IMG/VR virus record: IMGVR_UViG_3300012940_000040
Location: 1-45,759 of that record
DNA length: 45,759 bases
Strand: one strand, 5' to 3'
From: a virus
Taxonomy: Duplodnaviria; Caudoviricetes
Below are positions 2,754 to 13,267 of the stretch, one piece after another. Made by a program: the position numbers and the translations under genes. Below the pieces are notes generated by a model. It ran no database searches and was not told the DNA's origin. It saw nothing but the letters and a program-made list of their open reading frames with translations. How positions within the stretch are numbered: position 1 is the stretch's first letter; each line of letters opens with the position of its first letter.

Positions 2754-3172
2754 TGTACTCTAAATTTTAAAATATAAATTGTTTTTTCATTATTTGAATG
2801 TTCTAAAAAAATATCTTGATTATTGTATTTCGTTTTATGCTTAATAATTATTTCTTCAAAAGGATAAGATAATACAGATAAATCTTTTCCCTTTTTATAA
2901 AAGGCATAAATTTCTAAAATTAAAGGCTGGAACCACGGAAAATTTAAAGGTCGGCTTCCAAGAATATGTAAACTTTCATTGTTTACTTCATCAGTAAATA
3001 CATATCTATCTTGCAATTCTTTTCTATGTTGACGGAGATTATCTTTGATTGTAAGGAATATTTTTTTCTTCGCTTCTTCATCACCAAATACATCTGATCT
3101 ATCCACATAAAAATATAAGTATTCTAAATTTTTTTTCTTCTTTATAAATAGAGTTTTCAAAAATTTAAACAT
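2747..3172 (-). CDS. Hypothetical protein
   Basis: 141-aa ORF with no recognised motif. Confidence 0.65.
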   Translation of the reverse strand: MFKFLKTLFIKKKKNLEYLYFYVDRSDVFGDEEAKKKIFLTIKDNLRQHRKELQDRYVFTDEVNNESLHILGSRPLNFPWFQPLILEIYAFYKKGKDLSVLSYPFEEIIIKHKTKYNNQDIFLEHSNNEKTIYILKFRVQC

Positions 3173-3252
3173 TAGAAAATCAATTTATTTTAAAAATAAA
3201 ATAACATGATTACAAAAACAAATAAAAACGTAAAAAATTTTTTTGAAGCAAT

Positions 3253-3284
3253 AAAAAAGACCTACAAATTAATGTAAGTCTTTT
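3253..3284 (-). terminator. Intrinsic terminator after the tRNA pair
   Basis: Minus-strand hairpin AAAAGACTTACA-loop-TGTAGGTCTTTTTT downstream of the tRNA 3' exon. Confidence 0.7.
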
Positions 3285-3350
3285 AAGGTTAGCTTTCTAT
3301 CCTATTTTAGTTGCGGAGGCAGGATTCGAACCTGCGATCTTGTGATAATG

Positions 3351-3985
3351 CTTACTACTATAGTTTTCACTACCATTAAAATTAATGTTTGTAGTCTGGA
3401 CTTTATCTTCATTTTTTAATAAAAAAAATGTTCGCCGTTAAGTCTCTACACCTTCTTAATCTTAAATTAAGTTTGGCTCGGTATTACCACGCTTTCAGGC
3501 TTCACCGAATTTGACGAATTATACTGCATTTGTTTATTTAATGCAGCAGCCCTAATAATAGACCAAGCATTTTTAAAAAATTCAGGGTTATATGTTGATT
3601 TACTATTTTTAATGTTTTTAAATTCAATAGTAAATTCTTTTTTATTATTACAAAAAATATCAGATGATATAATCCAAAAATCATTAGTATCTATAAAATG
3701 TGCTACAACAAAATCAAAATCTTTAACATAATAACTTTTAGTTTTAAAATTAACTCTATTTGTTAAAGTTCTTATATTACCAGCACAGCATAAATTTCTA
3801 CTTTTAGATTTATAAACTGATTTAACTTGAATTTTTAAAAGAACATCATCAACATCTAAGATTAAGTCATATTTTAATCTATCACCTAATGGTTTAGAAA
3901 CATTAAAACCATTTTTAAGACATTCTAAAATTACACTTTGTTCTGAAATATCGCCCTTTAATTTTTTGTCCATTATTAATTATTG
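3351..3985 (-). mobile_element. Group I intron (IC3-like, 635 nt) inserted after U33 of the tRNA
   Basis: The 5' exon ends in U and the intron ends in G (3351). Core elements: P AAATTCGGTGAA (3512-3501), Q AATACCGAGCC (3485-3475), R GTAGAGACTTAA (3449-3438), S AAGATAAAGTCC (3409-3398). P3 is TTCGTC/GGCGAA and P2 is CTGCATT/AATGCAG. P1 pairs TGGCT|CAATAAT with ATTATTAGGGCTG, giving U-G at the splice site. Confidence 0.92.
3467..3973 (-). CDS. Intron-encoded PD-(D/E)XK homing endonuclease (I-Ssp6803I-like)
   Basis: Pattern KGDISE...VSKPLGD..KYDLIL...KIQVKS. The ORF starts in the P1 loop and its 3' end overlaps the intron core. Confidence 0.88.
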   Translation of the reverse strand: MDKKLKGDISEQSVILECLKNGFNVSKPLGDRLKYDLILDVDDVLLKIQVKSVYKSKSRNLCCAGNIRTLTNRVNFKTKSYYVKDFDFVVAHFIDTNDFWIISSDIFCNNKKEFTIEFKNIKNSKSTYNPEFFKNAWSIIRAAALNKQMQYNSSNSVKPESVVIPSQT

Positions 3986-4030
3986 AGCCACACGGGATGA
4001 CCACTTCCCCACTCCACGATATTATGTTAG

Positions 4031-4104
4031 TAGCGTTGGATGGATTCGAACCACCGATTTCTAGCTAATGAAACTAGCGAGATAGACCTCTTCTCTACAA
4101 CGCA
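4031..4104 (-). tRNA. tRNA-Met(CAT), initiator-type, intronless
   Basis: Cloverleaf TGCGTTG TA GAGA AGAGGTCTA TCTC G CTAGT TT CAT TA GCTAG AAATC GGTGG TTCGAAT CCATC CAACGCT A, with a U1:U72 mismatch and A11:U24. CCA is not encoded. Confidence 0.88.
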
Positions 4105-4126: not shown

Positions 4127-4157
4127 CAAATATATTTTTTATTTTTTAAAAAACAAA
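4127..4157 (-). promoter_or_regulatory. Bacteroidota-type -33/-7 promoter for the tRNA pair
   Basis: TTTG (4157-4154), 19-nt spacer, TATATTTG (4134-4127) matches TTTG-N19-21-TAnnTTTG. Confidence 0.7.
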
Positions 4158-4217: not shown

Positions 4218-4415
4218 TTACGCTTTAGACTTAGCTGCTTTTTTAGCTTTTTTCAATTCGCTTACTTCTACACGAATTGATTGAGAAAGTCTTTTTACTT
4301 CTTGTAATAATTTTCTTAATGCAAGACCAGCAGACTGATTTCCTTTATTATAAAATTTATCGGCTGGAATCTTTAATTCTTCTACTAGAGAAACTAATTG
4401 ATTTACTTTTTCCAT
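4218..4415 (-). CDS. Histone H1-like (Hc1-type) small DNA-binding protein
   Basis: ADKFYNKGNQSAGLALRKLLQEVK resembles the Hc1 signature KF..KGN.aAG.R.RK. Basic tail KKAKKAAKSKA. Confidence 0.8.
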   Translation of the reverse strand: MEKVNQLVSLVEELKIPADKFYNKGNQSAGLALRKLLQEVKRLSQSIRVEVSELKKAKKAAKSKA

Positions 4416-6516: not shown

Positions 6517-6801
6517 TTAAAGTTCATTCCAATAACCTAATTTCTTAGCAGTGCGAGTAGTGTAGTGTTTTCTTGCACCATCGTTATATGCTTTTGCAGC
6601 GGCTACAGCATCTTCAAGTAAGAAACAACCTAAATGAAAACGTTCTCCATTTTTTTGAATACGGCTACGTAAACGTACACCCCAACCACTTTGAGTTCTA
6701 TAAGTATTTACAGATACACCACGATAAGTAATGCCCAATGATTCTTTGTTAGGGCGTTTTCCCAATTTTTTGTTTGTTTTCTTTGTTAATTTGTTTGTCA
6801 T
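6517..6801 (-). CDS. Stand-alone AP2-domain DNA-binding protein
   Basis: YRGVS...W.VR...FHLGCF..EDAVAAAKAYND is the AP2 signature. No HNH domain is attached. TATTTTTG (-7-like) lies at 6827-6820. Confidence 0.8.
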   Translation of the reverse strand: MTNKLTKKTNKKLGKRPNKESLGITYRGVSVNTYRTQSGWGVRLRSRIQKNGERFHLGCFLLEDAVAAAKAYNDGARKHYTTRTAKKLGYWNEL

Positions 6802-6890: not shown

Positions 6891-8600
6891 TTATTTTAAT
6901 TTACCCCAATTGGTGCCATATTCATACTTCACCCTTCCAATTAATCCATTTATATCTGCTTCCATAATTGTGTTTATTGTTTCAAATATATCAGTGTCAT
7001 TTATTAATTTATCTTCCAATTGTAATAATATAGAATCATGATTTTGAAGAATTATTTTATTTTTTTTCAAATTAACCTTTCTCTTTTCTAATATATCTAT
7101 AATCAATCTTATTTTAATATAAAGAAAATCTGAAGCGGTAGATGAAATATAGTTATTTAATAAAGCATGGCGTTTTTCAACTCTAATAAATCTTCCAAAG
7201 TAATTTTTAAGTAAATGATTTTTTACATTAAAATTTTCATTAGTAATTTTTTCTGTCAAACATTTGATAGCTTTAATAATCCAATGGTGTTCAATTTTTA
7301 ATTTTAAAAAATCCCTTATTTGCTCCATTTCACTTTTCTTTATTTCATCTTTATCTTCATCATTACAAAAATCATCAATAATTGAATCAATTATCTTATC
7401 TAAATTCATTCCATATATTAAAGAGTAATTAATTTTTTTGCCTAACACTCTGTATGAATCCTTATTTTCTAATATAAATTCTTCACCAAATAAATATTTT
7501 ACAATATCAATGTGAGGGTCTAATTCAGTAGTAATAGGAATGTTAGATAATAAACATAGAATATCAAACTCAAAACTTTTATAATCAAATTCTATTAAAG
7601 TACAATTTTTGTCTGCATTTAATATAATTCTTTGATCTTTATTTAAAGTTTGTAATGATTGATTTTTATTTAAATTGACTGGATAAATACGTCCTGTTAC
7701 AGTATCACTTCCATTATATTCATACTGAACCATTCCATTTTGTATAGGAAATTCTAAATCTTTGAATTTATTGAAATTTATGTTCTTGATTTTAATATTT
7801 GAAAAATAATTTTCAACGATAAAAATATTTTCGTAAAAATTATTGTATTTATTCAAATTATTAATACCTAGTACATGACTGCTTATATAATGAGTAGTAT
7901 TAGTATCAATTGATTTATAAGTACGCAAAAAATAAAAATAAACTACTAACCACTTATAGTATTCATTAAAATCATCAACCTTATAATCAAAAAACTTAAA
8001 ATAATCAAGGAAGCTATTAAAATTAAATGATTTATCAACTAAACCTTGTTCTTTTAAATTTAACTTTATATCATTATAAGCTATGAAATTAATTTTACTA
8101 TCCGGTAGTAATTCCTCAATGGTAGTTATTTTTTTATTTAAAACAAAAGAAAAGTAATTAAAATCTATTGTATATATGTTTTTCCCATCGAATAAATACT
8201 GAATATTGTTTTTTGTATTATTTATTTTAAAAATATCACCATTTATTTCCTGTAACTGTTCTTGTTTATAAACATTAATCCTTTTATATTCTTTAATTGG
8301 CAATAAAATATTTTCAAAAATAAATTCTTTTAAATTGGAGTAGTATAAATTTAAATCATTCAATTCATCAGGACTATAGTACCAATAAACGTTTTCAGCT
8401 ATTTTATGATCTGAAAATATCGCTGCCGTTTCAAATAAATATGCAGCTAATTCAAATCCATCTACTATTATATTATTGTCTTTATTAAATTCACCATTTA
8501 TAAAAGATTCACTATCAATAACTTCTAATATCAAAGGACAAGAAGTAGTATTTATTATTTTAATATTATCAGATACCAATGTAATAGCAAATAAATTCAT
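6891..8600 (-). CDS. Family A DNA polymerase-like protein (palm/fingers domain, divergent N-terminus)
   Basis: TVTGRI, motif A IEFDYKSFEF, motif B RVLGKKINYSLIYGM, NYFGR and motif C LQNHDSILL. Confidence 0.85.
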   Translation of the reverse strand: MNLFAITLVSDNIKIINTTSCPLILEVIDSESFINGEFNKDNNIIVDGFELAAYLFETAAIFSDHKIAENVYWYYSPDELNDLNLYYSNLKEFIFENILLPIKEYKRINVYKQEQLQEINGDIFKINNTKNNIQYLFDGKNIYTIDFNYFSFVLNKKITTIEELLPDSKINFIAYNDIKLNLKEQGLVDKSFNFNSFLDYFKFFDYKVDDFNEYYKWLVVYFYFLRTYKSIDTNTTHYISSHVLGINNLNKYNNFYENIFIVENYFSNIKIKNINFNKFKDLEFPIQNGMVQYEYNGSDTVTGRIYPVNLNKNQSLQTLNKDQRIILNADKNCTLIEFDYKSFEFDILCLLSNIPITTELDPHIDIVKYLFGEEFILENKDSYRVLGKKINYSLIYGMNLDKIIDSIIDDFCNDEDKDEIKKSEMEQIRDFLKLKIEHHWIIKAIKCLTEKITNENFNVKNHLLKNYFGRFIRVEKRHALLNNYISSTASDFLYIKIRLIIDILEKRKVNLKKNKIILQNHDSILLQLEDKLINDTDIFETINTIMEADINGLIGRVKYEYGTNWGKLK

Positions 8601-12014: not shown

Positions 12015-12560
12015 TTATTGCTCTAAAATTTTCCTTTCTACATCTAAATTTCTGTTAATTGCATTTTCTTCATTAAACTTTTCTGGATAACGTGATTTTA
12101 ATTTATCAATATTTAGTTGAAGAATACTTTCAATATTAAAATTTAATGTTTCGCATAATTGTAAAATTAATTGATTTAAATGATTAAAAAAACCAAATTG
12201 TTTATTAGCATCATATGGTTTTTTATAAGCAAATAATTTTTTATCTAAATCTTGTAATTCTCCAATACACACTAAAATATCTTCTACAATTTCTTTAGCA
12301 TCTTTTACAATTACACGTTTATATAAATCAGTAGTCAAAGATAATTTATGTAATGTGGCATAATTGGCTACATACCACATTAAATCACCAATTTCTTCTT
12401 TTACATTCACTACATCAAAATTAGAACTTGATAGTGGTTTTAATAATTCAGCAGATACTTCAGTATTCATACCAACTGTCATATGAATACTATCATGAAC
12501 TAATTCACCTAGATTAGCCATAGTTCTTGTGGCTTCTTTTTGATAAATTTCTATTTTCAT
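12015..12560 (-). CDS. MazG-like nucleotide pyrophosphohydrolase
   Basis: YQKEATRT, KEEIGDLMWYVA and NIDKLKSRYPEKF. An internal partial repeat (GELQDLDKK) is present. Confidence 0.85.
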   Translation of the reverse strand: MKIEIYQKEATRTMANLGELVHDSIHMTVGMNTEVSAELLKPLSSSNFDVVNVKEEIGDLMWYVANYATLHKLSLTTDLYKRVIVKDAKEIVEDILVCIGELQDLDKKLFAYKKPYDANKQFGFFNHLNQLILQLCETLNFNIESILQLNIDKLKSRYPEKFNEENAINRNLDVERKILEQ

Positions 12561-12571
12561 ATTTACTTTAG

Positions 12572-13267
12572 TTAAATTAAGAATTTTTCAATAAATGATT
12601 TTTCTTTCGAAAAAATAGGTGGTTGTATATCAATCACCCATTGATTTTTATTTTGTTTTTTCGGTTCAGAAAATTTGTTTAAAATTATTTTTTCAATTAA
12701 TTCTTGTTTAATAACAACCGGAAATTCTACTTTATAAAAACAAATTCCATTTGCATATTTTGTACCAATAAATTGTTTTATTGATTCTTGTTGCTTAAAA
12801 ATAAAATTATTTTCCACTTCAAAATATGGTAAATTATATACAGCTACACTAAAATAAGCAGGTTCGTAATTATCATATTTTAATTGTTTACTTAAATAAT
12901 TATTGAATTGATAAGTAAATTTAGAAGATATTGTACTTGTTATCTTTTGAATATCTCCTTTAAAATATTGCTCCTGTTCTTGTTTTTGATCATCCCTCAA
13001 TAAAAATAAAACTTCATCTTTTTGATAAAATGCAAAAACAATATTTCCTACTTCTTCACATATATTTCTAATTGTTAAAGCAAAAGCAGAAGCTATATCA
13101 ATATCTAAACTTTTATTTTCTAATAATAAATTATTCGTAAATTTATCATAATGTCTAAGGTTTACTTTAACAATTGCTGGTTGTTTGGGCATTAATTGAT
13201 TTTTAGTTACTTTTTCATACCCAAACATTCTTTCTCCTAAATTTATTTTTTTAATTTTCTGTTTCAT
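12572..13267 (-). CDS. tRNA(His) guanylyltransferase Thg1-like protein with a degenerate active site
   Basis: LGERMFGYE..LMPKQPAIVKVN, FYQKDEV, YFKGDIQKITSTISS and WVIDIQPPIFSK follow bacterial TLP architecture. Confidence 0.8.
   Translation of the reverse strand: MKQKIKKINLGERMFGYEKVTKNQLMPKQPAIVKVNLRHYDKFTNNLLLENKSLDIDIASAFALTIRNICEEVGNIVFAFYQKDEVLFLLRDDQKQEQEQYFKGDIQKITSTISSKFTYQFNNYLSKQLKYDNYEPAYFSVAVYNLPYFEVENNFIFKQQESIKQFIGTKYANGICFYKVEFPVVIKQELIEKIILNKFSEPKKQNKNQWVIDIQPPIFSKEKSFIEKFLI

Follow-up and report, generated by a model that had tools for sequence, protein, structure and literature searches.

The closest described relative of the element reported here is the tRNA-fMet intron of Synechocystis sp. 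PCC 6803, an intron of 655 nt that encodes an enzyme of 150 amino acids (PMC1995217), the homing endonuclease I-Ssp6803I (structure 2OST; PF11645). It belongs to the fMet.2Ug class of IC3 introns, which in the available text of Williams 2020 (bioRxiv 10.1101/2020.01.27.920355) stands among intron classes drawn from bacterial and archaeal assemblies only. I-Ssp6803I is described as a tetramer (PMC3384342), and the change E11Q as inactivating it (PMC2175346). For phages, the accessible part of a 2014 review (Hausner et al., PMC3984707) states that all group I introns to date lay in protein genes, despite the many phage tRNA genes. Introns in the anticodon loops of phage tRNAs are known from Lak megaphages, where they were described as the first introns found in phage tRNAs; two examples are shown, both of about 80–95 nt and with 'no hit in rfam', and the available text describes neither a ribozyme nor a nuclease in them (PMC6784885). 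Our literature search, with most subscription journals lying outside it, turned up no publication on group I introns located in phage tRNA genes; the main text of PMC7162821 does not contain the word 'intron', and the accessible portions of PMC11878797 and PMC12386605 hold nothing relevant.

The locus studied here lies in the window, by which we mean the whole 45,759-nt stretch of viral DNA that was analysed (IMG/VR record IMGVR_UViG_3300012940_000040; Caudoviricetes). It consists of the following features, listed in the direction of transcription:

4127..4157, minus strand: possible promoter of the two-tRNA unit, weak (Bacteroidota-type -33/-7 consensus; three matches against 2.8 by chance)
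4031..4104, minus strand: second, uninterrupted initiator-like tRNA-Met(CAU) gene, 12 nt upstream of the split one (U1×U72, A11:U24, U37, recoded anticodon stem)
3986..4018, minus strand: 5' exon of the initiator-like tRNA-Met(CAU), tRNA positions 1–33 (33 nt, last base U33; adjoins the 3' exon in an intron-free relative)
3351..3985, minus strand: group I intron, an IC3-type tRNA intron (635 nt; terminal G at 3351; Rfam RF00028; absent from the contig of the relative, X2)
3467..3973, minus strand: PD-(D/E)XK homing-endonuclease ORF in the P1 loop (168 amino acids; PF11645 and 2OST matches)
3547..3559, minus strand: internal guide sequence, the 3' strand of P1 (pairs with exon 3990–3986 and intron 3985–3979; cofold -13.3 kcal/mol)
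3351..3546, minus strand: ribozyme body (P2, 3546–3524; P3, 3518–3513/3436–3431; P4–P6a; P7, 3446–3440/3403–3398; P8 and P9 region)
3311..3350, minus strand: 3' exon of the tRNA-Met(CAU), C34 to A73 (40 nt; A73 at 3311; U37; CCA not encoded)
3255..3284, minus strand: intrinsic-terminator-like hairpin directly after the split tRNA (1 found against 0.3 expected)

Like the Synechocystis element, the phage intron is inserted after U33 in a U·G/terminal-G setting, is similar in size (635 against 655 nt) and encodes an endonuclease of the same family and fold with the same catalytic residues. It differs in residing in a phage rather than a chromosome, in its recoded exons (U37 and no GGG/CCC stem), in the second, intact initiator-like tRNA gene that adjoins it, and in an enzyme that is about 40% identical to I-Ssp6803I, falls in a clade of its own and has changes in its predicted recognition strands. 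Directly upstream of the tRNA pair, positions 4218–4415 (minus strand) encode an Hc1-like histone H1 protein (PF07432); its atlas clusters are mostly viral, with one from Ignavibacteriota, and a word search for its homologs returned none.

The intron is a well-formed group I element, and self-splicing is predicted. The first-pass annotation, made by a model from the letters of the sequence, had proposed a group I intron with a complete core and named a covariance-model search as a check. Rfam Intron_gpI matched positions 3376–3570 with 62.3 bits (gathering score 50; E 2.8e-15), and all 14 helix sets (P1, the P1 extension, a four-pair P10 and P2–P9.1), which were picked by eye from the Rfam alignment and assigned by coordinate, consist of standard pairs only, with no mismatch. 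The 5' splice site is marked by a U33·G3551 pair in P1 and the intron ends in G3351; P7 contains a bulged A and a G–C guanosine-binding pair, and P9 has a GAAA loop. A fast Rfam scan of the whole window missed the intron and listed the neighbouring tRNA alone.

The tRNA search on the joined exons gave the expected identity: once the exons had been joined by script, ARAGORN called a tRNA-Met(CAU) of 74 bases. ARAGORN alone cannot fix the junction, because 136 of 182 trial exon joins were called as a tRNA of one kind or another and, in intron mode, the program read the split gene wrongly as tRNA-Leu(CAA). Initiator tRNAs are distinguished by a 1:72 mismatch, R11:Y24, A73 and three G–C pairs in the anticodon stem. 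The split tRNA carries C1×A72, G11:C24 and A73, but it also has U37 and U3·G70, and of the three anticodon-stem G–C pairs only the central one, G30–C40, is kept. Thus, it is initiator-like but non-canonical. The insertion lies between U33 and C34 of a CAU tRNA, as in the fMet.2Ug class.

Three sequencing runs contained part of the region. One of them, X2, which comes from another study, yielded a relative of roughly 95% identity that has both tRNA genes, including the counterpart of 4031–4104, and no intron; it is represented by one contig of 352 nt at a depth of 3.9. This contig shows 10 differences and 6 gaps relative to window positions 3102–3350 and 1 difference relative to positions 4001–4081, and it joins position 3350 straight to the letters of the 5' exon. 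The bridge comprises 16 exon letters, which equal the end of the 5' exon save for a small D-loop change, the 13 nearest the junction being identical. Because the intron and the 3' exon both start with CA, the joint fits three registers; we chose 3986/3350 because only there does a U precede the intron and a G end it. The intron-free contig and the U·G/terminal-G rule together bear out the junctions originally read from the sequence (3986/3985 and 3351/3350, with insertion between U33 and C34). A repeat alignment restricted to a narrower stretch recovered neither this contig nor the source contig, probably because of filtering by the tool. The presence of the intron in one phage and its absence from the other could reflect loss rather than gain. 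In a further run, X3, both flanks were covered and the intron was not; no contig bridged the site, and this run was not counted as an empty allele. A pattern search of IMG/VR for the exact empty site gave 47 matches, all by chance and none of the 47 in a tRNA, and a search of IMG/VR for relatives of the phage through a flanking gene of 429 amino acids found none close among 24 candidates.

The first base of the endonuclease ORF is intron base 13. Over its 31 terminal codons (3559–3467, counting the stop), the ORF overlaps the internal guide sequence as well as P2 and P3–P6a, in line with the earlier estimate that about 30 terminal codons double as ribozyme. The proposal that the P1 loop encodes an I-Ssp6803I-like PD-(D/E)XK enzyme was likewise upheld: the protein matched PF11645 (PDDEXK_5) with 92.8 bits against a threshold of 26.1 and matched 2OST with an E of 2.7e-27. 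Its AlphaFold2 model has a mean pLDDT of 86.8, and a Foldseek search with this model returned 2OST as the top match (E 2e-16, TM 0.73–0.85).

A profile search identified 214 relatives of the enzyme among 1369 candidate proteins, and a relative was encoded in 398 of 574 candidate stretches from bacterial and archaeal genomes and in 291 of 389 from metagenomes. We classified 165 loci, namely the best 80 from genomes and the best 80 from metagenomes, with the window itself among them, plus six viral loci. In 119 of the 165, the ORF lies inside a tRNA-fMet intron of 623–713 nt, always with the canonical GGCT/CATAAC junction; the classification is based on exons, and some true introns remain under 'other'. 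Among the best 80 bacterial-genome loci, 57 are intron-encoded in fMet genes and span 13 named phyla, with 18 in Bacteroidota; these loci are mostly metagenome-assembled genomes, in which binning can err. The element is therefore not confined to cyanobacteria, contrary to the wording of PMC3384342 in its available part, and the special cyanobacterial link that the first-pass annotation had drawn is not supported. In the bacterial relatives that were fetched, the ORF likewise begins just inside the intron. A tblastn search of phages and plasmids in GenBank with the endonuclease gave no match.

In a quick tree of 100 proteins, the window enzyme fell, with a terminal branch of 0.85, into a long-branch clade of nine (SH-aLRT 99) that stands apart from the bacterial enzymes; this tree rests on 148 columns, with the careful search unfinished and a composition warning, and distant members of the clade may be missed. 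The clade is made up of the window enzyme, the free-standing viral homolog L061 and seven proteins without known context, whose length of 139–141 amino acids suggests that they are free-standing. In five of the six viral loci (L061–L065), a free-standing gene immediately precedes an intact, recoded tRNA-Met(CAU) gene, and the sixth is cut by the contig end. These five genes belong to the same enzyme family as the window enzyme, L061 to the same clade, but they come without a ribozyme and their tRNA gene is intact. L061, the sole clade member with known context, adjoins a U37 tRNA-Met gene. SegB and SegF of T4 are reportedly a case of such intronless homing. In L001/L061 (1497–2024) and in L062, the free-standing endonuclease gene lies between a tRNA-fMet-like 5' remnant and a recoded tRNA-Met gene that is complete, which would fit loss of the ribozyme or duplication of the start of the tRNA on insertion. 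Other arrangements were also seen. In three bacterial loci (L085, L091 and L130), a group I 3'-end motif precedes the endonuclease ORF, which suggests nested or tandem introns; L425 has a PD-(D/E)XK family match outside an intron-split tRNA-Arg gene, and L247 has a fragmented match inside a tRNA cluster.

The window enzyme keeps D8, E11, D36, Q49, K51, T71-N72-R73 and W137 as they are in 100 distinct bacterial intron-encoded relatives. By contrast, W54, D65, K70, Q125 and R126, which are 98–100% fixed in these 100 enzymes and unchanged in four other viral homologs, are replaced in the window enzyme and in all eight other members of its clade. The positions of W54, D65 and K70 lie on or beside predicted beta-strands of the AlphaFold2 model, within residues 52–78, which we take to face the DNA in 2OST. 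The target differs as well. The empty site of the phage departs from all 119 bacterial sites at -12, +4, +6, +9 and +13, and from 118 of the 119 by 6–8 mismatches over 17 bp, so that the ORF is flanked not by the canonical pseudopalindromic fMet site but by a variant of it; the variation is in the target and not in the fold. Target and enzyme have thus changed together, which suggests that the enzyme was re-specified to the phage allele.

We consider it probable that this intron is able to splice and spreads by homing among related phages, its endonuclease cutting the intron-free copy of the same gene. A transcript of both tRNAs would be made, and the intron would be removed at U33/C34 by the two-step guanosine mechanism to release a second initiator-like tRNA. 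The ORF would be translated from the unspliced or the excised RNA, and its product would form a tetramer like that of I-Ssp6803I. Re-specified to the phage-type anticodon arm (U37 and a stem other than GGG/CCC), the enzyme would cut the empty allele in co-infecting relatives, and recombination would then copy the intron into the cut allele. In the carrier, the site is destroyed by the intron, and the adjacent tRNA gene is presumably too different to be cut, with 11 of 26 bases unlike those of the intron-free site; nowhere in the window does a sequence come within 4 mismatches of the 17-bp target. If the window enzyme does cut the empty allele of a co-infecting phage, it would resemble the intron endonuclease that PhiPA3 uses against PhiKZ in interference competition, although in that nucleus-forming phage the intron lies in a protein gene and the effect has been shown (PMC12908238), whereas here it lies in a tRNA gene and the effect is predicted from sequence.

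Less likely, by a clear distance, is that the ribozyme splices while the endonuclease is decaying, so that the intron is passive and the empty allele reflects an older polymorphism or intron loss. The window enzyme has private changes at sites that are fixed both in bacteria and in its own clade, namely R67I, Y100W, P103S, R124S and K127T, and these may represent further tuning or decay; R124S and K127T fall within a low-confidence loop of the model, and it is R67I, Y100W and P103S that speak for decay, as does the long terminal branch. The second, intact initiator-like tRNA next to the split gene also relaxes selection on the latter. However, the ORF has stayed open over 168 codons in DNA of about 21% G+C, all catalytic residues are kept in a confidently modelled protein, and the empty allele is present in a close relative, all of which argue against decay.

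We regard as improbable that the enzyme is a weapon against the host, cutting the canonical tRNA-fMet gene, with the phage itself providing two recoded initiator-like tRNAs whose genes would escape cleavage. Both phage tRNAs do depart from the canonical site, and free-standing homologs lie next to intact, recoded tRNA-Met genes on five viral contigs; in addition, wild-type I-Ssp6803I is described as hard to express in E. coli (PMC2175346), and its fidelity as varying along its site (PMC3384342). However, the enzyme would have to cut the recoded site for homing, because the intron sits within that site and the sibling empty allele shares its junction, and the residues that are fixed in the enzymes with canonical targets are those replaced here. 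Cutting of host fMet genes is thus unlikely, given the 6–8 differences over 17 bp and the changes in predicted DNA-facing residues, and the predicted re-specification to the phage allele leads to the same expectation. Of the fMet genes first named as possible targets, those of competing, intron-free phages (as in the X2 allele) remain the likely ones, whereas those of the host do not.

U37 also occurs commonly in viral CAU tRNA genes that have no nuclease of this kind in their vicinity, which further argues against a host weapon. A pattern search for viral CAU tRNA loci (L227–L345) found U37-type loops in 70 of 119 loci (46 distinct sequences) and a fragmented family match nearby in 1 of 119, with full flanks fetched for 80 of them. 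We therefore rejected the idea that U37 marks immunity to this endonuclease. A possible alternative is that U37 in phage initiator-like tRNAs serves to evade host anticodon nucleases; such evasion has been proposed in general, although the phages covered in the available part of that work mostly avoid encoding tRNA-fMet (PMC10264068).

It is very improbable that the phage recently acquired the whole element from a bacterial chromosome and acts as its vehicle between phyla (such movement had been suggested at first): insertion site, ORF position and intron length are the same (635 nt, against 623–713 nt in the 119 bacterial cases and 655 nt in Synechocystis, PMC1995217) and the ribozyme core is compatible with the bacterial fMet group in AU tests, but the protein is only about 34–44% identical to its bacterial-genome relatives and groups inside none of them, its position on a separate long branch, together with a free-standing viral homolog, gives no sign of recent transfer between phyla, and the phage exons would not recombine readily with canonical genes. 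Those AU tests followed a first quick tree of ribozymes, which was built from the 162 of 204 cores that contain the anchor motif and which placed the window core with viral Leu/Arg introns. Once two long branches had been taken out, a tree constrained to join it to 87 bacterial fMet cores scored higher, and three subsampled AU tests rejected neither placement (p 0.20–0.80). A composite origin, with a phage ribozyme joined to a phage enzyme, was thus suggested by the first tree and contradicted by the constrained one, and we do not claim it.

Searching IMG/VR with the 3'-end motif of the intron, we estimated that about 530 stretches contain it. In 112 of the 120 that were fetched, a tRNA T-loop follows, and the 3' exons of the 120 comprise 77 Leu, 14 CAU, 11 Arg-like and 18 others. 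The view that phage group I introns sit in protein genes thus agrees with the literature searched but not with IMG/VR, where tRNA introns of this subgroup are common. The split phage tRNAs (loci L346–L465, L055, L059, L060 and L467–L471, and from GenBank L002, LR756501, and L472, OR578706) are mostly Leu-UAA, with Arg, elongator/Ile2 CAU, Gln, Thr and probably Asn also represented; some of their introns, at about 700 nt, probably carry ORFs. The introns in the tRNA-Leu gene of LR756501 and the tRNA-Arg gene of OR578706 are IC3-like and belong to the same ribozyme family as the window intron, which is 72.5% identical to the LR756501 core. Rfam reported an intron model in two of eight fetched loci (L151 and L376); L002, L400, L467 and L472 were unlisted at E 0.001 and are taken as group I introns by core similarity and exon joins. 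Such genes are therefore under-annotated in phage genomes: ARAGORN reads the split gene as tRNA-Leu, and the intron escapes the fast Rfam scan.

Among the 120 + 5 + 3 phage tRNA-intron loci, we found no initiator-type gene where both exons were readable and no PD-(D/E)XK ORF inside an intron; in the CAU cases with readable exons, positions 1 and 72 are paired, as judged by eye. A targeted search for fMet-type junctions returned five loci, all of elongator/Ile2 type and without this nuclease, and the motif and junction searches of IMG/VR gave no further viral fMet intron that contains a PD-(D/E)XK ORF. Two blastn matches were set aside: the one in Lak-B2 has no tRNA or Rfam match, and the one in a Kolpuevirus sits between two pieces of a DnaB gene. 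A related group I core, unannotated, lies between two capsid-gene pieces in Pelagibacter phage HTVC120P (L003, 1163–1355) and in L005.

The phage context given to the locus from the start was confirmed by CheckV and by genes for terminase, T4-type capsid, sheath and tube, because of which we regard the contig as a fragment of a large T4-like myovirus. CheckV completeness is 19%, which would put the genome near 240 kb. A Bacteroidota host, as first suggested, is plausible but weak: Flavobacterium phage immuto is the best or near-best isolate match, at 37% identity for the capsid, 26% for the terminase and 45% for ThyA, and a Shine–Dalgarno-like word precedes 1 of 43 starts against a background of 7%. 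The three matches to the Bacteroidota promoter consensus all lie upstream of coding-strand genes, at a count no different from chance, and a sigma-70 promoter scan was also at chance level. On the minus strand, the window further encodes a tRNA-His guanylyltransferase (Thg1; 12572–13267), a MazG-like protein (12015–12560) and a DUF5856 protein (1613–1990; a starvation-inducible regulator in PHROGs), pointing to translation and stress functions on the phage. A family-A polymerase-like ORF with a weak Pfam match (6891–8600, minus strand) is followed by a 94-amino-acid fragment that resembles part of an HNH-family gene (6517–6801, minus strand).

More tentatively, and with the balance somewhat against it, we propose that the window enzyme belongs to a phage-confined lineage of I-Ssp6803I-like endonucleases, both free-standing and housed in a ribozyme, whose DNA-reading strands may have been re-tooled to phage-type initiator tRNA genes (with U37 and a recoded anticodon stem, possibly shaped by host anticodon nucleases), and which would serve for homing and as a competition weapon between sibling jumbo phages. 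If this is true, the locus would provide the first case of a phage initiator-tRNA gene with a group I intron that bears an endonuclease, it would represent a natural specificity switch in a homing-endonuclease scaffold of solved structure, and it would be a single tip in a population, so far undescribed, that comprises hundreds of group I introns in phage tRNAs. Because the changes in target site and enzyme match, relative to a crystallised homing endonuclease, the specificity switch is directly testable. The architecture has long been known from bacteria and the setting, a phage initiator-like tRNA, is new: this is a real element of known architecture in a new setting, with a sibling empty allele and signs of a specificity shift. 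Together, the locus and its empty allele provide a testable homing pair and a clean counter-example to the protein-gene-only rule, as that rule is worded in the available part of PMC3984707.
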